A stretch of DNA of 64,000 nucleotides. Source: an uncultured Candidatus Saccharibacteria bacterium. GTDB lineage: Bacteria > Patescibacteriota > Minisyncoccia > Phycocordibacterales > UBA918. Positions 55,375 through 64,000 of the stretch are shown here, in pieces. Made by a program: the position numbers and the translations under genes. The notes under the pieces were generated by a model that was not told where the DNA came from, did no database searches, and saw nothing but the letters and a program-made list of their open reading frames with translations. The stretch is from assembly GCA_964649535.1 (NCBI GenBank), contig CAZYTF010000001.1, forward strand, positions 1,521-65,520. The letters are read 5' to 3'. Numbering within the stretch: the stretch's first letter is position 1; each line of letters starts with the position of its first letter.

Positions 55375-55402
55375 TTGACTGTAAAATTGTGTATTGTACA
55401 CT
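55375..55402 (+). promoter_or_regulatory. Sigma70-like promoter for the NrtR-like gene (near-leaderless)
   Basis: TTGACT, a 16-nt spacer, then TACACT, with the ATG 8 nt downstream. Confidence 0.35.
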
Positions 55403-55409
55403 AAGATAC

Positions 55410-56081
55410 ATGCATAAAGCCCCAGAAGAATTCAGATTTGCTGCAATAGCGGTAGATATTGTTGTTTTTGGTATTAAAGATAATACGCTTTGTTTGTTGC
55501 TTGACGAAGTCAACAGACCTCCTCATTATCAAAATATAGACGCTTTTATTGGTGGTCTTATTGGTGTTGATGAAACTGCAGACGATGCAGTTGTTCGTCA
55601 TTTGCGCGACAAGGCTGGTATTAAAAATGTGTATACAGAACAGCTCTATACATTTAGTAACATTAACCGTGACAAACGGAACCGAGTTATTTCAGTGAGC
55701 TATATGGCAATTGTCCGGCCAGATGTTGTTGAGCGTTATGTGCACTCGAGTGCTCACTGGACTCCTGTAGCTCCTTTATTAAAACTTGCGTATGACCATG
55801 ATGAAATGCTGAAAGTCGGCTTAGCTCGTTTGCAAGGTAAGTTGGGGTACACAACAATCGTGCAGTATCTTTTGCCTACAGAGTTTACGCTTACAGAAAT
55901 GCAACAAGTATACGAGCTTGTTACTAAAAAAGAATTTGATAAACGGAACTTCAGAAAGAAAGTGCTGGCACTAGACATTATTAAAGAGACAGGGAATGTG
56001 CAAGAGGGAGTTAAAAATAGACCTGCAGCACTCTATGTTTTCAGAAATAAAAACGTTCAAGAACTTCAATTATTTGTATAA
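55410..56081 (+). CDS. Nudix-related transcriptional regulator (NrtR-like: Nudix domain plus C-terminal winged helix)
   Basis: N-terminal Nudix fold with a degenerate box (IGGLIGVDETADDAVVRHLRDKAGI). The C-terminal roughly 90 aa resemble the NrtR wHTH. NAD-salvage genes lie nearby. Confidence 0.6.
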   Translation: MHKAPEEFRFAAIAVDIVVFGIKDNTLCLLLDEVNRPPHYQNIDAFIGGLIGVDETADDAVVRHLRDKAGIKNVYTEQLYTFSNINRDKRNRVISVSYMAIVRPDVVERYVHSSAHWTPVAPLLKLAYDHDEMLKVGLARLQGKLGYTTIVQYLLPTEFTLTEMQQVYELVTKKEFDKRNFRKKVLALDIIKETGNVQEGVKNRPAALYVFRNKNVQELQLFV

Positions 56082-57113: not shown

Positions 57114-57209
57114 CCTTTCAATGAACCATTCCGTAGCTACTGTACCTTAAGTTTTTAAAAGATAAAGCAATAGAGTACAAATCGTAACAAAAAAGATACA
57201 CTACATGAA

Positions 57210-58354: not shown

Positions 58355-58459
58355 ATCATTCTCCTTTTCAATGAACTCGTTTCTCCAATACTCTACACAA
58401 CCATGCCTAAAAGTACAGGAGTGATTGATAATTTGTAACAAAAAGAATACACTTGAATA

Positions 58460-59194
58460 ATGCAATTAAAAGACATATTTAAACGACTTGGGTACCCTAA
58501 ACATTCCGACACAATCTACGAGGTCCTTACACAAAGCAAGGAGACACTTTCGGTGTCTGCACTTGCAGAACAGTGTGGTGTTTCTCGAGTCGTTGTATAT
58601 CGCTGTGTTGAAAAACTTGAAGAGGATGATTTGATAGTGAGAGACATAGTCGGCCGCCGAACGTACTATAAAACTTCAAGTCCTCATAAACTTACGGAGG
58701 CAATGCGGTGTGTAGAAGATGAGTCAGCACAAGTGGTGAAACAACATATACAAACACGCGAAAAAGATGTGCCACACAATGTGCGATTCCTTCATGGTGC
58801 TCGTGGCATTCGCGAAGCATTTGATGATGTCATTACGCATACTAGGAAAGGGGATACATTCTTCCGATATACGTCTGAGCGAGATCTTGAAAAGGTTAAT
58901 GCCTACCTATCGAAGGAATATCGACTACAACGTGACCAGAAGAAGTTAGAGCGACTGGTAATCAGTAATCCAGTTTCTGGTACACAAAAGAAATCGAGAC
59001 TTGAACGTTTTATTAAATATATTCCTACCGACGCAGATCAGTTTGAGCACAATATTGTTGAACTAATTTACGGCAGTCGCGTCTGTATCATTGACCTCAA
59101 CCTTGAAGAAGTGATGATTATTGATAATCAGCAACTAGCAGACTTTCAAAAGGTGATATTCAAACTACTCTACAAACGCCTCTCAAACGAGTAG
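58460..59194 (+). CDS. TrmB-family transcriptional regulator
   Basis: N-terminal HTH (LSVSALAEQCGVSRVVVYRCVEKLEEDDLI) plus a TrmB-like C-terminal domain. Confidence 0.55.
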   Translation: MQLKDIFKRLGYPKHSDTIYEVLTQSKETLSVSALAEQCGVSRVVVYRCVEKLEEDDLIVRDIVGRRTYYKTSSPHKLTEAMRCVEDESAQVVKQHIQTREKDVPHNVRFLHGARGIREAFDDVITHTRKGDTFFRYTSERDLEKVNAYLSKEYRLQRDQKKLERLVISNPVSGTQKKSRLERFIKYIPTDADQFEHNIVELIYGSRVCIIDLNLEEVMIIDNQQLADFQKVIFKLLYKRLSNE

Positions 59195-59264: not shown

Positions 59265-60653
59265 ATGGAAAACGTTGTTACGCTGCCAGTATTAAAAGGG
59301 CAAGGGTTTATCCTGCGCCATTTTGAATCAAACGACGCTGCTTCGCTGCAGCATCACCTCAACGATGAACGAGTGGCTCGCAAAGTGAGTCATATACCGT
59401 TTCCGTATACCATCGACCATGCACGAGATTGGATTTCTCGTACTGAAAGTTCAGTGTGCCTTAATTCCAATCGTATCGATTTTGTAATCGACATTGGCGG
59501 CGAAGCCGTGGGCTCAGTTGCCTTCATCAATATCGAAGGACATAAAGCTCAGTTGAGTTACTGGCTTAGTCCTGACTACTGGGGCAAGGGTATTGTCTCT
59601 GAGGCAGTGAAATTACTGCTCAGCTTTGGCTTTGTGATGCTGCCGCTTGAACGTGCCTATGGGTACGTATATAGCGAAAATACTGCTTCCGCCCGTGTGC
59701 TCCAAAAGTGTGGCTTTCGTTTTGAAGGTACACATAATCGAGAGTGGCGTAAGGTGATTGACGAAGAAGTGAAATTCTTCGATTCAAACTTTTATGCCGT
59801 ACTCCGGTCTGACGTGTTTCGGGAAGTTCGTGATGTGGTTGTATTCAAGTCTGACACTGAGGAGTCCGATCTCGCAAGTAAGGGGTTGGCACGTCAGCTC
59901 AGTGAGGTTGGTGTTAAGGTTCAGATAGCACATCGTGCCGATGAACTCACCGCTCCATTCAGTCTTGCCATTTCTGTGGGTGGTGATGGACAAATGATGA
60001 GAACTGTCCACACCATGTCGCCACTTTCTGTGCCAACTCTGGGCCTTAACGCCGGTAATGTTGGGTTTTTGACGAGTGCGAGAGTTAATCCCCTTGGGGT
60101 GAACCAGTCAGTGTTTCAGCGGATAGTTCAGGGAAACTTTCAGGTCGAACAGCGTCTGGGCATTCAATTTGAATTTGAAGGGCAGTCCTATGGCCCATTT
60201 TCTAATGAGGTTTTACTCAAAGTACCCAAGGGTATGGCGAGTTATGTCCTTAGCGTAAACCAAGAACAAGTATATGCGGACATGGCAGCTGACGGTATTC
60301 TTTTGGCAACAGCAACTGGTTCAACTGGATATAACACCGCTGCTGGAGGACCGATTATTTGGCCTGATTCTCGCAGTGTGGTTGCAACCGCTCTGAATCC
60401 GACAACGTTCAATGTGCGTCCGATTGTGTTTGGTCAACTTGCACAAGGAGGGGAAATATCACTTGGCGTAGCGAAACTGCACCATGATATTGAACCAGTT
60501 GTGTCCGCAGATGGAAAAGATCAGCTTGAAGGAAAAGGGTTGCGCTCGGGCGATGGGGTGGTGATACGTAGGTACCCTCGTCCAATGCTCTTTGCAACGT
60601 TTGGAAGTAGTTCATACCTCCATGCATTAAAAGAAAAAAAGGGATTTATGTAA
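59265..60653 (+). CDS. nadK: Fusion: GNAT (RimL-like) N-acetyltransferase plus NAD kinase
   Basis: GNAT motif A (GYWLSPDYWGKGIVSEA) at the N-terminus. NAD kinase motifs GGDGQMM, NAGNVGFL and ATATGSTGYNTAAGGPI at the C-terminus. Confidence 0.75.
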   Translation: MENVVTLPVLKGQGFILRHFESNDAASLQHHLNDERVARKVSHIPFPYTIDHARDWISRTESSVCLNSNRIDFVIDIGGEAVGSVAFINIEGHKAQLSYWLSPDYWGKGIVSEAVKLLLSFGFVMLPLERAYGYVYSENTASARVLQKCGFRFEGTHNREWRKVIDEEVKFFDSNFYAVLRSDVFREVRDVVVFKSDTEESDLASKGLARQLSEVGVKVQIAHRADELTAPFSLAISVGGDGQMMRTVHTMSPLSVPTLGLNAGNVGFLTSARVNPLGVNQSVFQRIVQGNFQVEQRLGIQFEFEGQSYGPFSNEVLLKVPKGMASYVLSVNQEQVYADMAADGILLATATGSTGYNTAAGGPIIWPDSRSVVATALNPTTFNVRPIVFGQLAQGGEISLGVAKLHHDIEPVVSADGKDQLEGKGLRSGDGVVIRRYPRPMLFATFGSSSYLHALKEKKGFM

Positions 60654-60665
60654 ACTTAAGAAGAT

Positions 60666-60693
60666 GGGCGGCGAGTAACACACGCCGCCCTTT
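60666..60693 (+). terminator. Intrinsic terminator
   Basis: gggcggcg-(10 nt)-cgccgccc followed by TTTT. Confidence 0.5.
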
Positions 60694-60877
60694 TATATAC
60701 ACCATACATAGTGTCGGCTTGAAATTAAGAATTAATAGTATAAGATAGTGTCAGATATACACAAAGTAACGTATGGTAGTTCATTGAAACCTGAGCGGGA
60801 ACATAGACAAAACGCCATTTTAATGGTACTTTTCGACGAAATTGTACATCGCTCTTATAGAAAAACAGGAGAAAGAC

Positions 60878-61501
60878 ATGGCTAAAGTTAACAACTCATT
60901 GAACCACCAAATGTTCAAGCTTGCAGCTCCCGGCGCAGGTGCGATGGTCTTCCAGGAGTTGGATTCGAATACGTTTCGCGTTCTCCTCGCTATGAGGACA
61001 GCGCTTGTCGGACTGGGGCTTGGTATTACAGGCGGTGGGTTCATCGAATGTGGCGCTATCGACGCTCTGCAAGTGGACACCATCATTCAGACAGCTGATG
61101 AGGCCTATCGTGAGTTGTGTCAAGAGAATCTCGGCTTTGAAAATGTTGTTGATATTGATACATTCCTGCTTCACGCGCAGCCTATTGCACTCGTACATGC
61201 TCGTACAAATGACGTTAACCGCGTCCATTCTGTCAACATGTATGGCTTTCGTGCAAACGATAGCCAGTGGAACAGGATTGCTGCGCTTGAACCGGGTCTC
61301 GACAAAGAACGTACCGGACCGCTGCTTGAACACATTGTGCGATGGAAAGGGAAAATCGACCGTCGCGAGCCAGAGCGGTTTGTAACGATTGAGGATGCGC
61401 GTGGCAGATTCCTTGAACGCCATGACTTTCACCACAAGCATGAAATGCACACTGTTGCCTCAATTGCGTGGCATGCTCAAAATGGACGGCTGTTGCCCTA
61501 G
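60878..61501 (+). CDS. Hypothetical protein inside the NAD-salvage cluster
   Basis: GGAG ribosome-binding site 6 nt upstream of ATG 60878. 207 aa with no family recognised. A long antisense ORF is rejected. Confidence 0.45.
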   Translation: MAKVNNSLNHQMFKLAAPGAGAMVFQELDSNTFRVLLAMRTALVGLGLGITGGGFIECGAIDALQVDTIIQTADEAYRELCQENLGFENVVDIDTFLLHAQPIALVHARTNDVNRVHSVNMYGFRANDSQWNRIAALEPGLDKERTGPLLEHIVRWKGKIDRREPERFVTIEDARGRFLERHDFHHKHEMHTVASIAWHAQNGRLLP

Positions 61502-61510
61502 GAGTAAACC

Positions 61511-62170
61511 ATGTTGAAAAAAAGAGTAGGGATTCTCGGAACCTCCGCGAATCCCTTGCATGAGGGTCATGTCGCCCTCGCGCTTGAAGCACTTGCTGTT
61601 GCGCAGCTTGATGAAGTCCTTTTTATGGTCAACCAAAATCCATTTAAGGAGGTCAACGGCTTTGCACCAGTTGCGCATCGTTTGCACCTTGCTCATCTTG
61701 GGGTGCGCGCAAGTGGTCATCTCGGTAATGGTTTGAAAGTAAGTGAGTTCGAAGTGGTACTTCGTCAACTGGGCACTGAGAATGCAACAGCAGTAATGCT
61801 CGCACATTTTTCAAAGGCATATCCTGAACTCCAGCCAGTCTGGATGATGGGCACTGATAACTTTGTGTCTCTGCATACGTGGGGCGGTTGGCGCGACATC
61901 ATGGAGAAATACCCCGTTGTTGTGTTTGGACGCGATCAGAGCAGAGACGTTGCTCAGTATTCGATTGCTGCTACACAGTATCAGACACATGAGCGTGACG
62001 TCGTAAATTTTGATTGCGAACCTGGCACCTGGTGTTTTGTCGATGGAGTTTCTCACCTCGCATCGTCGACCTTGATTCGGGAGGCGTTGCTTCGGAAGGA
62101 GAAGCCCGAGTTCATTTGTGATGAGGCTGTTGCGTATATTCGAAAGTATCAACTATTCGGATGTGTGTGA
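61511..62170 (+). CDS. nadD: Nicotinate-nucleotide adenylyltransferase (NadD-like cytidylyltransferase fold)
   Basis: GILGTSANPLHEGH, a (H/T)xGH motif variant. About 220 aa. Confidence 0.7.
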   Translation: MLKKRVGILGTSANPLHEGHVALALEALAVAQLDEVLFMVNQNPFKEVNGFAPVAHRLHLAHLGVRASGHLGNGLKVSEFEVVLRQLGTENATAVMLAHFSKAYPELQPVWMMGTDNFVSLHTWGGWRDIMEKYPVVVFGRDQSRDVAQYSIAATQYQTHERDVVNFDCEPGTWCFVDGVSHLASSTLIREALLRKEKPEFICDEAVAYIRKYQLFGCV

Positions 62171-62176
62171 TGAGAT

Positions 62177-62267
62177 TCAGAAATTCTCATACCTGTCCGA
62201 CGACGCGAACCTCGCGCCGTCGGACACTATTGAGAGTTCCAGAGTTGGAATTCGTGGACGTTCTTTA
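62177..62267 (+). repeat. Copy 1 of a 91-nt structured element (GC-rich hairpin core gtccgacgacgcgaacctcgcgccgtcggac)
   Basis: Identical at 90 of 91 positions to 63139..63229. Starts right after the nadD stop and ends about 25 nt before the pncA-like start. Confidence 0.5.
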
Positions 62268-62292
62268 CAAGAGAAAAAAGGAGTAAGTCAAA

Positions 62293-63123
62293 ATGATACG
62301 TCGTCTTGCATTTATTATAGACCCACAAAATATGTTCATGACGTTGCCAGGAATGCCGTTGCCGGTGTTTGGTGCTGACCAGGACATGCTGCGTGTTGCA
62401 GTACGTCTGTTGCTCTATCCATTCTATTATGACGAAATCGTGGTTACGCTCGATACACACACTGAAGATCATATCGGGCACCCCGGACGGTGGTTGAATG
62501 ACCAGGGTCAGCAACCTCTGCCATTTACCGTTATTACTTCGGCTGAATACGAGGCAGGGAAGTGGTGTGCGGCCGATCCAGCGGACCAGGTATGGCAAGG
62601 TGACTACCTGCGACTGCTTGAAGCAACTGGTCGTGTGCATACTGTCTGGCCAGTGCATGGTCGGAAAGGTCATTTCGAACATAAGGTGTACAAGCCTCTG
62701 AAAGCCGCACTCGATACGTGGGAGCGCATTACTGGCAAGAAGGTGCGGTACATCGAAAAAGGTATGCATCGTGACACTGAGCAGTTTGGCGTGTTTGGTG
62801 CAAATGTCCCAATCACTGGAGCATCTGAGACAGAAATCAACATGGAACTGCTTGGCGAAGTAAACAGCTTCGATGCAACCCACTACTTTGGTGAAGCTTC
62901 CAGTCATTGTGCAAAGGACTCTGTTACACAGAACCTTGCGCATATACCTGAAGTTGATTTCTCCAAGTACACAGTCTTCCGTGACTGTATGTCGCCTGTT
63001 GCTGCAGTGGTTGATGAAAAAACTGGTGACGTGATTGTTGACTTTCCTGCACAAGCTGAAGCATGGTTTCATGAGCTGCAGGCAAAAGGAGTCAATGTCG
63101 TTAAGGCCGAAGATTACTTTTGA
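62293..63123 (+). CDS. pncA: Isochorismatase-family nicotinamidase-like protein
   Basis: LAFIIDPQNMF (compare IVDVQNDF), TLDTHTEDH, VWPVH, and catalytic-Cys context GEASSHCAKDSV (compare ATDHCV). Confidence 0.6.
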   Translation: MIRRLAFIIDPQNMFMTLPGMPLPVFGADQDMLRVAVRLLLYPFYYDEIVVTLDTHTEDHIGHPGRWLNDQGQQPLPFTVITSAEYEAGKWCAADPADQVWQGDYLRLLEATGRVHTVWPVHGRKGHFEHKVYKPLKAALDTWERITGKKVRYIEKGMHRDTEQFGVFGANVPITGASETEINMELLGEVNSFDATHYFGEASSHCAKDSVTQNLAHIPEVDFSKYTVFRDCMSPVAAVVDEKTGDVIVDFPAQAEAWFHELQAKGVNVVKAEDYF

Positions 63124-63138
63124 CACCTGAGCAATTTC

Positions 63139-63229
63139 TCAGAAATTCTCATGCCTGTCCGACGACGCGAACCTCGCGCCGTCGGACACTATTGAGAGTT
63201 CCAGAGTTGGAATTCGTGGACGTTCTTTA
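63139..63229 (+). repeat. Copy 2 of the 91-nt structured element
   Basis: Same sequence as copy 1. Starts 15 nt after the pncA-like stop and ends about 32 nt before the pncB start. Confidence 0.5.
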
Positions 63230-63261
63230 ACAATTGAATAGAGAGAAACAGGAGTGAAACG

Positions 63262-64000
63262 ATGATTAAGAATCTGCTCTGGAATCCTGACGTGCCGATT
63301 GTCCGCCGTGCGGATGAAAACGACGTATACAAGATTCTGATGATGTATCTCATTTGGAAGTACTATCCGAATCTTCGTGTGAAGTTTGGTTTCAAAAATC
63401 GCACAAAGACAGTTGTATTGTCAGAGTATGTTGATCTGCTTGAACTGCAGGAACAGCTTCGCGAAACTGCAAAACTTCAGTTCACTGAAGAGATTATCGC
63501 AGTGTATCGTACCTGGGATATGTTCCCTGAAGATTTTCTTCAGGCACTTGCAGACATCAAGCTTTCTGCACCAACGGTGTACAAGGAAGATGGACAGCTG
63601 AAGATTGATATCGAAGGTCTTTGGTTTGAAGTGACCCTCTGGGAGATTTATATTCTATGTACGGTTTCTGAGTTGTATGGTCGAGCACGTGCGCGTGCCG
63701 AAAGTATAACTGAGGCAGCACTGTGGAAACAGGGCAATATCCTGCTGAGTGAAAAGATTAAGCTTTTCAAGGCAAATCCTGATTTGCGTATTGCGCAGTT
63801 TGGTCTGCGCCGTCGCTTCAGTGTGCTTTGGGAAGACCACATTACTGAGCGTCTATTGACCGAATGTCCTGGTGTCATCACTGGGGTATCCAACATGTAT
63901 ATTGCGGACAAGTTCGGAATGCCTGCACAGGGTACCAATGCTCACGAATTGCCTATGGCTCTTACGGCGCTTGCGCGTCATGAAGGTCCAGAAGCAATGC
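63262..64000 (+). CDS. pncB: Nicotinate phosphoribosyltransferase (N-terminal part; runs off the window)
   Basis: DVYKILMMY... and GTNAHE near the window end. Open reading frame to position 64000. Confidence 0.8.
   Translation, partial: MIKNLLWNPDVPIVRRADENDVYKILMMYLIWKYYPNLRVKFGFKNRTKTVVLSEYVDLLELQEQLRETAKLQFTEEIIAVYRTWDMFPEDFLQALADIKLSAPTVYKEDGQLKIDIEGLWFEVTLWEIYILCTVSELYGRARARAESITEAALWKQGNILLSEKIKLFKANPDLRIAQFGLRRRFSVLWEDHITERLLTECPGVITGVSNMYIADKFGMPAQGTNAHELPMALTALARHEGPEAM

Follow-up and report, generated by a model that had tools for sequence, protein, structure and literature searches.

A conserved RNA element with two mutually exclusive helices precedes nicotinamidase-like and pncB genes in NAD-salvage operons of Patescibacteria

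Why do two successive gene junctions of one nicotinamide adenine dinucleotide (NAD) salvage operon carry nearly the same 91 nucleotides (nt), and what might this element do? The question is raised by a 64,000-nt stretch of DNA from an uncultured Candidatus Saccharibacteria bacterium (contig CAZYTF010000001.1, positions 1,521 to 65,520 of the forward strand), here called the window. A sequence-only reading of the window had noted two 91-nt segments in gaps between same-strand genes, identical at 90 of 91 positions, and repeat search and gene calls confirmed them. The direct repeat occupies 62177-62267 and 63139-63229 at an offset of 962 nt (~98-99% identity), and the sole difference is A at 62191 versus G at 63153. 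It was the sole direct-repeat family of 91 nt reported by the search, and it has two copies. Copy 1 lies in the gap between nadD and a gene for a 276-amino-acid (aa) nicotinamidase-like protein, and copy 2 in the gap between that gene and pncB. The copies end 25 and 32 nt before the next start codon, respectively, in agreement with the spacing of about 25-32 nt first read. Both copies are structured segments encoded in cis within the polycistronic mRNA of the NAD operon and belong to a previously undescribed family that occurs only before nicotinamidase- and pncB-type genes in Patescibacteria.

Element structure and evidence for RNA

Across the family the element consists, from 5′ to 3′, of UCAGWAR, hexamer a (UUCUSA), internal-loop strand J1, hairpin P1a, internal-loop strand J2, strand b, a loop, strand c, a linker, tract d, an A/C-rich spacer, the Shine-Dalgarno sequence (SD) and AUG. 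J1 (4-7 nt) and the pyrimidine-rich J2 (about 5 nt) are not conserved in sequence, and P1a, a GC-rich hairpin of 9-15 base pairs (bp), has a different sequence in every genome. The consensus of b is USAGARUUYC and that of c is GRAAYUCU. The loop between them is 3-19 nt long and starts with NGA; in loops of 15-19 nt, small hairpins seem possible by eye. A linker of 0-24 nt leads to d (GUUCUUUAMCAA), the most invariant stretch of the element, whose GTTCT is invariant in alignment A2. The start of d is 24-51 nt from AUG (24-36 nt in 'up' copies, 37-51 nt in 'dn' copies), and the ribosome-binding site (RBS) lies 15-40 nt past d. Strand b can pair either with the 5′ strand that contains a (helix P1ext) or with c (hairpin P2). 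Conservation outside pairing is found in d, in NGA at the start of the P2 loop and in two fixed mismatches of P1ext, and the loops, J1 and J2 are variable. In one locus (L004, 6873-7041), the copy before pncB has a branched ~110-nt insertion in P1a that could, by eye, form further hairpins. The parts of the two window copies are listed below.

Copy 1
62177..62189 (+), 5′ strand of the clamp helix P1ext (UCAGAAAUUCUCA); alignment columns 6-18, which pair with 64-76
62184-62189 (+), hexamer a within the 5′ strand
62190-94 and 62226-30 (+), non-conserved internal-loop strands J1 and J2, flanking P1a
62195..62225 (+), variable GC-rich hairpin P1a
62231..62243 (+), shared strand b (UGAGAGUUCCAGA), serving as 3′ strand in P1ext and, over 62234-62240, as 5′ strand in P2
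62234..62253 (+), alternative hairpin P2 (GAGUUCC, loop AGAGUU, GGAAUUC), formed in the minimum free energy (MFE) fold
62260..62271 (+), conserved single-stranded tract d (GUUCUUUACAAG); SD GGAG at 62280-62283 and ATG at 62293

Copy 2
63139..63151 (+), 5′ strand of P1ext, in the same alignment columns as in copy 1
63157..63187 (+), hairpin P1a
63193..63205 (+), shared strand b; P1 is formed in the MFE fold of this copy
63196..63215 (+), alternative hairpin P2
63222..63233 (+), tract d (GUUCUUUAACAA); SD AGGAG at 63250-63254 and ATG at 63262

The strong GC-rich hairpin and the second hairpin first noted in the repeat are real, and the folding z-scores against shuffles are -3.9 and -5.7 for the two copies. 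The 33-nt core palindrome has 2 exact occurrences in the window against 0 expected from shuffles. A third, small cgtggacg hairpin (62253-60) did not hold up; it sits in a linker that is conserved in no relative.

Base pairing was assessed on an alignment of 32 instances (A5). P1a has both-sided changes at 11/11 pairs and 97.4% of its cells are paired. Over the whole tested structure, both-sided changes occur at 16/23 pairs and 94% of cells are paired, compared to 75% in column shuffles (0/500 reach 94%) and 32-51% with the partner slid. The C or G at the fifth position of a swaps with G or C in b in 22/22 instances examined by eye; on A5, the counts for this swap in P1 are 23 C-G and 8 G-C with one exception. 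G.U pairs outnumber A.C mismatches 19 to 0 in P2 (32 instances) and 37 to 2 in P1ext outside one fixed mismatch column. An A.C mismatch is the other-strand equivalent of G.U. These substitution patterns identify the element as RNA of the + strand. Structure-preserving compensatory changes in the stems, which the sequence-only reading had named as the pattern to look for, are abundant, and its proposal of a conserved structured RNA before the RBSs of two enzymes of one pathway is strongly supported. No promoter or terminator was found inside the gaps in a scan of 60500-63400, which supports co-transcription. Terminator-like sites in this range number zero; P1a is followed by CUAUUGAGAG, and P2 is AU-rich.

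Two mutually exclusive helices

RNAalifold did not select hairpin P2 as first read. It selected P1ext, formed between UCAGWAR-UUCUSA (columns 6-18) and USAGARUUYC-NGA (64-76). This helix spans 12-13 positions, is stacked under P1a and takes up the entire 5′ arm and the first loop nucleotides of P2. It is paired in 91% of A5 cells, with compensatory change at 5 pairs, and has fixed non-canonical positions: column 10 is never paired with column 72, and columns 8 and 74 form A.G in 12 instances. P1ext is present in the unconstrained MFE structure of 18/32 instances, and making its 5′ strand unavailable costs 3-12 kcal/mol. P2 (b:c, 7-8 bp) is paired in 97.6% of cells over the 32 instances in a manual register, a level reached by 0/2000 shuffles, and its substitutions are of the types C-G/U-A and A-U/G-C/G.U. 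The second hairpin of the earlier description is real, but its competition with the longer P1ext had been missed.

The variation of strand b follows the two pairings. Positions of b paired in both helices are invariant or change only from A to G opposite U. Position b0, paired in P1 only, swaps freely with a, and position b7, paired in P2 only, swaps freely with c. Column 69 of b is compatible with both partners in every instance. This pattern argues for double duty of b, with both folds used. It provides good evidence that the two folds have been kept by evolution and that the element is a conformational switch, which probably acts on gene expression.

Further pairings were considered. A fourth upstream competitor strand, as in a trp-like 1:2/3:4 scheme, is present in the fold of copy 1 and is not conserved (mean z = -0.18). 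Pairing of b with d was rejected, as it never exceeds 5 bp and finds no support in the single informative substitution (L046). An H-type pseudoknot between the P2 loop and d was judged, by reasoning only, to be sterically unlikely with linkers of 0-4 nt. The palindrome AGAATTC-N6-GAATTCT, sought elsewhere in the window, shows no excess over shuffles.

Distribution of the family

Relatives were fetched as loci encoding homologues of the nicotinamidase-like protein (47-64% identical). Each fetched locus has the same synteny and the same architecture in both gaps, though the sequences differ. The family comprises 32 aligned and 2 divergent instances from the window and about 16 independent loci (~17 Patescibacteria loci), usually with one copy at each of the same two gene junctions per locus. 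A covariance model of 18 instances, run over 265 kb of related loci, found exactly the two expected copies per locus; all else was weaker reverse-strand echoes of palindromic hairpins. No third copy was found by covariance-model search of the whole 64-kb window with filters off (next matches E>2).

A context-free metagenome scan used a pattern of P2 and d only. It returned 58 loci, 10 of which were confirmed by the covariance model, and the remainder is close to the prior estimate of chance pattern matches. All 10 confirmed loci are NAD-salvage loci in which the element adjoins nicotinate phosphoribosyltransferase (NAPRTase) and/or isochorismatase-type genes. Flanking genes among the scan loci include non-orthologous ones: a classical 225-aa isochorismatase-family PncA (PF00857), NAPRTases 25-30% identical to that encoded by the window pncB, and a NadM-Nudix gene in place of nadD. 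All confirmed instances are directly 5′ of nicotinamidase-type or NAPRTase (pncB) genes, and the element follows function, not gene ancestry. The expectation that copies would occur only next to NAD genes held in the 265 kb, in the window and in the context-free scan. Genome contigs scanned with an alignment of the nicotinamidase family yielded one locus only, which was already represented; this protein family is rare among species representatives. In one locus (L018, 3073-5058), pncA lacks a preceding element and its start codon overlaps the stop codon of the preceding Nudix gene; the pncB copy there is rearranged, with a score of only 42.6 bits.

The 99% identity of the window copies could suggest a selfish repeat of the repetitive extragenic palindrome (REP) or miniature inverted-repeat transposable element (MITE) type, or a chance duplication. 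The chance of this is practically negligible. The window has only two copies in 64 kb with filters off, both junction positions are kept in ~17 loci whose proteins are 25-65% identical, and no match was found in unrelated contexts. Restriction of the copies to sites beside NAD genes refutes the reading. In 13 other genomes, the two copies of one genome are 41-75% identical and their differences are compensatory; L014 and L046, at 74-75%, show partial homogenization. Because copies elsewhere are this diverged, the near-identity in the window is best read as recent homogenization in this lineage, by gene conversion or re-duplication, and not as a family trait.

Rfam searches detected no known family. 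In the window (1-64000, both strands) no family reached its gathering score, tRNAs and ribosomal-protein leaders included, and none did so in four related loci. Rfam 15 cmscan (E<=10) of 4 kb and of the 151-nt element gave only noise (E>=1, far below gathering score). No literature was found on an RNA motif of pncA/pncB or of NAD genes in Patescibacteria.

Host operon and NrtR operator

The genes of the operon and its regulatory sites in the window are as follows.

55410..56081 (+), NrtR-like regulator gene, Pfam NrtR_WHD (1.6e-22) and NUDIX
60719-60746 (+), operon promoter TTGAAA-16-TAAGAT, from the promoter scan
about 60745-60765 (+), palindrome AGTGTcAGAtaTACAC with a GT-N7-AC core, right after the -10 box and followed by AAAGTA
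61511..62170 (+), nadD-like gene, 219 aa, Pfam CTP_transf_like (3.3e-12); TGA stop at 62168-62170, 6 nt 5′ of copy 1
62293..63123 (+), nicotinamidase-like (pncA-like) gene, 276 aa; TGA stop at 63121-63123, 15 nt 5′ of copy 2
63262..64000 (+), pncB (nicotinate phosphoribosyltransferase), cut by the window end, Pfam NAPRTase_N and NAPRTase

The 276-aa protein has no Pfam match. Its homologues are labelled nicotinamidase-related amidase, and a profile of its family run against PDB matches only solved nicotinamidases (2h0r, 2wt9, 1ilw, and 3pl1). D10, K156, and C206 are invariant in the family, and we take these Asp, Lys, and Cys residues to be the catalytic triad of nicotinamidases. On the full contig (locus L001), nadE comes after pncB. 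The region 5′ of nadD encodes a GNAT-NAD-kinase fusion, a TrmB-like helix-turn-helix (HTH) protein, prs-like and PRT-Nudix genes, and the NrtR-like regulator, the last of which had been called correctly at 55410-56081 and is confirmed by its NrtR_WHD match. At 59265-60653, one 462-aa open reading frame joins the GNAT acetyltransferase domain to NAD kinase; several relatives (L004, L006, L011, and L013) encode them in separate genes that overlap. An unannotated 196-207-aa protein without a Pfam match is encoded before nadD (60878/60911-61501). Read by eye, its GGGFIECG...YRELCQENLG stretch resembles a degenerate Nudix box. In other loci a single NadM-Nudix-type gene stands in for this protein and nadD.

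The sequence-only reading had offered an unusually long NrtR operator as an alternative to RNA. An operator for NrtR or another transcription factor would fit the presence of an NrtR gene in every sufficiently long locus, and P2 with a 4-5-nt loop makes a 20-21-bp DNA palindrome. Known NrtR sites are 21-bp palindromes with a GT-N7-AC core (PMC2330246); they share with the element the regulon, the palindromic form and the length of about 21 bp, but differ from it in sequence and place. The element has no GT-N7-AC core and no such 21-mer lies within it. Half-site spacing varies over 3-19 nt in P2 and by over 100 nt in P1a, one genome (L014) has two different P2 sequences, the gaps have no promoter, and tolerance of G.U without A.C makes sense only as RNA. 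Because of the covariation, the G.U pairs without A.C and the loop insertions, a DNA operator is incompatible with the data. This reading is very improbable, and the element as an NrtR operator is ruled out, a separate GT-N7-AC palindrome having been found at the operon promoter. A sigma70-type promoter (TTGACA-like, ~17 nt, TAtAAGAT) with the palindrome is conserved in 12 loci (window, L004, L006, L008, L010, L011, L013, L014, and L016-L019), and the palindrome at 60745-60765 is probably the real NrtR operator of the cluster.

Other sites were seen in promoter regions. Half-sites (GTACACTAAG) occur just upstream of nrtR (about 55385-55405). Long leaders carry GTTCATTGAAAC 3′ of the operator, at about 60780-60840 in the window and in the same gap of L004, L006, L008, L010, L011, L014, and L019. 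An apparent second promoter follows it (cATTGACA, 16-17 nt, TAYTTT, often with a TG extension), so the operon may have tandem promoters; this block is missing from the short-leader loci L013, L016, and L017. In the prs-like and PRT-Nudix promoters, the -35 region overlaps with a second conserved, operator-like sequence, the inverted repeat TGTATC-N5-6-TGTTAC(A) (58435-58452 and 57184-57200, both -), which is found in the prs/HTH divergent regions of L004, L006, L010, L011, and L013 as well. It is distinct from the NrtR-type palindrome, and the adjacent TrmB-like HTH protein (58460-59194) may bind there.

Trigger and output of the switch

P1ext would be the ground state of the switch. Because its 5′ strand is transcribed first, P2 is expected to form only while that strand is held. 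The one event that would regularly cover the 5′ strand is a ribosome terminating on the upstream cistron. With the upstream gene under translation, b would fold onto c; without upstream translation, the clamp would close and leave the pyrimidine-rich c-d tract free beside the RBS. In this way initiation of translation on the pncA and pncB messages, or their stability, would be adjusted independently of nadD and nadE. A translation-linked two-state switch of this kind, set by the ribosome finishing the upstream gene, is proposed tentatively, its chances being somewhat short of even. A NAD-related effector may act on the conserved strands.

Stop-codon positions bear on this model. The first base of the upstream stop codon is at -29 to +6 of the first base of a in 33/33 instances and exactly at -3 in 13. 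At -3, all three stop codons are used, and U70 and U71 pair with the purines in their second and third positions. The stop codon is ~<=16 nt from a in 20 instances and 18-29 nt in 13. Absence of the upstream copy in L018, where pncA overlaps the preceding stop, and absence of a conserved upstream competitor strand were counted in favor of a ribosome trigger.

Translational coupling by ribosome unfolding of intercistronic mRNA occurs at the rpmI-rplT junction of the IF3 operon and at the phage MS2 coat-replicase junction. The element is similarly intercistronic, the upstream stop overlies or adjoins the 5′ strand of its main helix, and an alternative fold is expected as the ribosome passes. In classical coupling the helix occludes the downstream RBS, whereas in this family 50-90 nt separate b from the RBS, for which no occlusion is predicted. 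Unlike the coupling cases, the element has a dedicated conserved alternative hairpin, family-wide and pathway-specific. In trp-type leader-peptide attenuators, the choice between mutually exclusive helices depends on where a ribosome stops. Helix choice in the element could likewise hinge on the ribosome stop, but its upstream open reading frame is a full enzyme gene instead of a leader peptide, there is no terminator, and only three strands compete, without a conserved fourth upstream strand.

Several observations weigh against the ribosome-set switch. In 11/33 instances, mostly those before pncB, the distance from the upstream stop to a is 21-29 nt, which exceeds the ~12 nt covered by a terminating ribosome. 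The SD is predicted to be equally accessible on average whether P1ext is enforced (unpaired probability 0.51) or the 5′ strand is blocked (0.52), and the sign of the difference varies between instances. A plain coupling device would not need conserved primary sequence across genomes whose proteins are 45-60% identical, nor would it need restriction to NAD-salvage genes. Tract d is explained by no intramolecular pairing tested, and it recurs in prs-like and PRT-Nudix leaders without the switch, which points to a trans-acting factor.

Two other outputs were examined and rejected. Sequestration of the SD by d or c is predicted for some copies but is inconsistent and the same in both states (mean pairing 0.19 for d and 0.07 for c). 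An internal promoter, with TACAAT in d as a -10 box, was not found by scan, and no consistent -35 box was found by hand.

A metabolite riboswitch would be read out by the same strands: a ligand would shift b between a and c to control pncA and pncB. Candidate ligands are NAD+, nicotinate mononucleotide (NaMN), nicotinamide mononucleotide (NMN), nicotinamide, nicotinate, ADP-ribose, and phosphoribosyl pyrophosphate (PRPP), and the binding conformer would likely be P1ext/P1a with its mismatches, d possibly being docked. Such a riboswitch, the third class of the NAD pathway, is possible if rather doubtful. It would suit the strict link to one pathway across non-orthologous replacements, the alternative partner for the 3′ strand of P1, which is the classical riboswitch layout, the conserved non-canonical positions of P1ext, and the conserved, single-stranded d; the pnuC motif is similarly simple (PMC7749635). 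However, J1, J2 and every hairpin loop lack sequence conservation, and pairing among the three strands covers nearly all conserved bases. In at least 15 instances the upstream stop or coding sequence extends into the 5′ strand, so that an aptamer would be disrupted by translating ribosomes. There is no terminator (60500-63400 scan) and no consistent SD sequestration; no cognate-specific pairing of the SD region was found with J1, loops, 5′ flank or d, and J2 is marginal (p = 0.05 uncorrected, six tests). The earlier interpretation is kept in part: covariation and the pathway link stand, and the variable loops, stop-codon overlap and lack of terminator or consistent SD sequestration leave the label itself unestablished.

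Of the known NAD riboswitches, NAD+-II (the pnuC motif) is also a short cis-regulatory RNA before a NAD-salvage gene (PMC7749635, PMC10085692), with a P1/internal loop/P1a arrangement, a variable P1a loop and a functional 3′ segment near the RBS. Besides P1 and P1a, whose loop varies, it has a 3′ pseudoknot (PMC7749635). Its internal loop is highly conserved and its pseudoknot contains the RBS, whereas the loop of the element is not conserved and RBS pairing is unsupported. The pnuC motif is found in the 5′ untranslated region of Streptococcus pnuC genes only, the element between cistrons at Patescibacteria pncA/pncB only, and no covariance-model match links them. NAD+-I (the nadA motif) shares the NAD pathway, bulged stem-loops and two similar units (PMC6859854, PMC7297122). 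In Acidobacteria, its two domains stand in tandem in a single leader before nadA, each with a ACANCCCC bulge; the element has separate copies before two genes, no ACANCCCC in its sequence and no covariance-model match. The NAD+-I riboswitch family is present in Rfam. The initial remark that no known NAD riboswitch class matches holds, as cmscan gave no nadA or pnuC match. Neither in sequence nor in structure is the element related to NAD+-I, NAD+-II, or NrtR operators. In its full form, the riboswitch claim would make the element the aptamer and expression platform of a third, structurally unrelated NAD class restricted to Patescibacteria, sensing a salvage intermediate or NAD+ between cistrons and tuning PncA and PncB apart from the NrtR promoter; this is judged somewhat unlikely.

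The recurrence of d brings in a regulon-specific trans-acting factor, an RNA-binding protein or small RNA, that would read RUUCU cores in a, c and d while the switch presents or masks them near the RBS. The sequence of a, b, c and d is far more conserved than P1a, and the RUUCU core is common to a, c and d. A d-like GTTC[TA]T[TAC] lies <=60 nt upstream of the start in 7/12 prs-like and PRT-Nudix genes, compared to 12/170 other genes (several within NAD clusters) and 2/77 remaining NAD genes. In 'up' copies, d starts 24-36 nt before AUG, about the reach of the 30S footprint. On the other side, the double pairing constraint alone can explain conservation of a, b and c, no RNA-binding candidate was found among the cluster proteins (enzymes, NrtR, and the TrmB-like HTH), and no complementary small RNA was found. 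A trans-acting factor is considered unlikely. The 196-aa protein was rejected as an RNA binder, as on reading it looks like a degenerate Nudix and it is missing from several loci that keep the element. In the window, d-like GTTC(A/T)TTGAAA lies right before the SD of the prs-like and PRT-Nudix genes (58365-58376 and 57115-57126, both -), as it does in L010, L011, L074, L016, and L046. The motif is often preceded by ACGAAAC, the linker of several 'up' copies, and is also found before some unknown cluster genes and an AAA_28 (NadR-kinase-like) gene in L011.

A processing or stability module would account for keeping both helices. The P1ext-loop-P1a duplex would be cut, for example by RNase III; P1a would then stabilize the upstream 3′ end, and b and c would form P2 as a 5′ protective hairpin on the pncA or pncB message. 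The lower stem, internal loop of 4-7 nt per side and upper stem together make ~24-28 bp, and phage T7 RNase III sites have a similar stem/internal loop/stem form. A GC-rich hairpin without a U-tract also occurs after pncB, before nadE, in all loci, and the primary regulon leaders likewise run from hairpin (the operator palindrome) to GUUCUUU to SD. The conserved primary sequence and the restriction to pncA/pncB are left unexplained, however, and the nadE junction makes do with a plain hairpin. Processing is quite improbable as the function. The hairpins of the pncB/nadE gaps, at L001 12218-12254 (just past the window) and in L004, L006, L010, L011, L013, L016, L017, and L019, differ from one another, are GC-rich and lack a U-tract. 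In many loci they are followed by a CCUCC-like tract and then the nadE SD. All three operon junctions have a strong hairpin shortly after the stop codon.

Significance

Patescibacteria have minimal genomes and an apparent dependence on salvaged cofactors, and their gene regulation is almost unstudied. A new pathway-specific cis-regulatory RNA family in this group is well supported. Its targets are exactly the two enzymes that turn scavenged nicotinamide into NaMN. With the RNA element atop a recognizable NrtR-controlled promoter, NAD would be controlled at two levels in a very small genome. At about 110 nt, the element is short enough for direct tests in vitro and in reporters. If a metabolite is the trigger, the element would represent a new riboswitch class of the NAD pathway; if the upstream ribosome is, it would be a clean natural three-strand device for regulated translational coupling.

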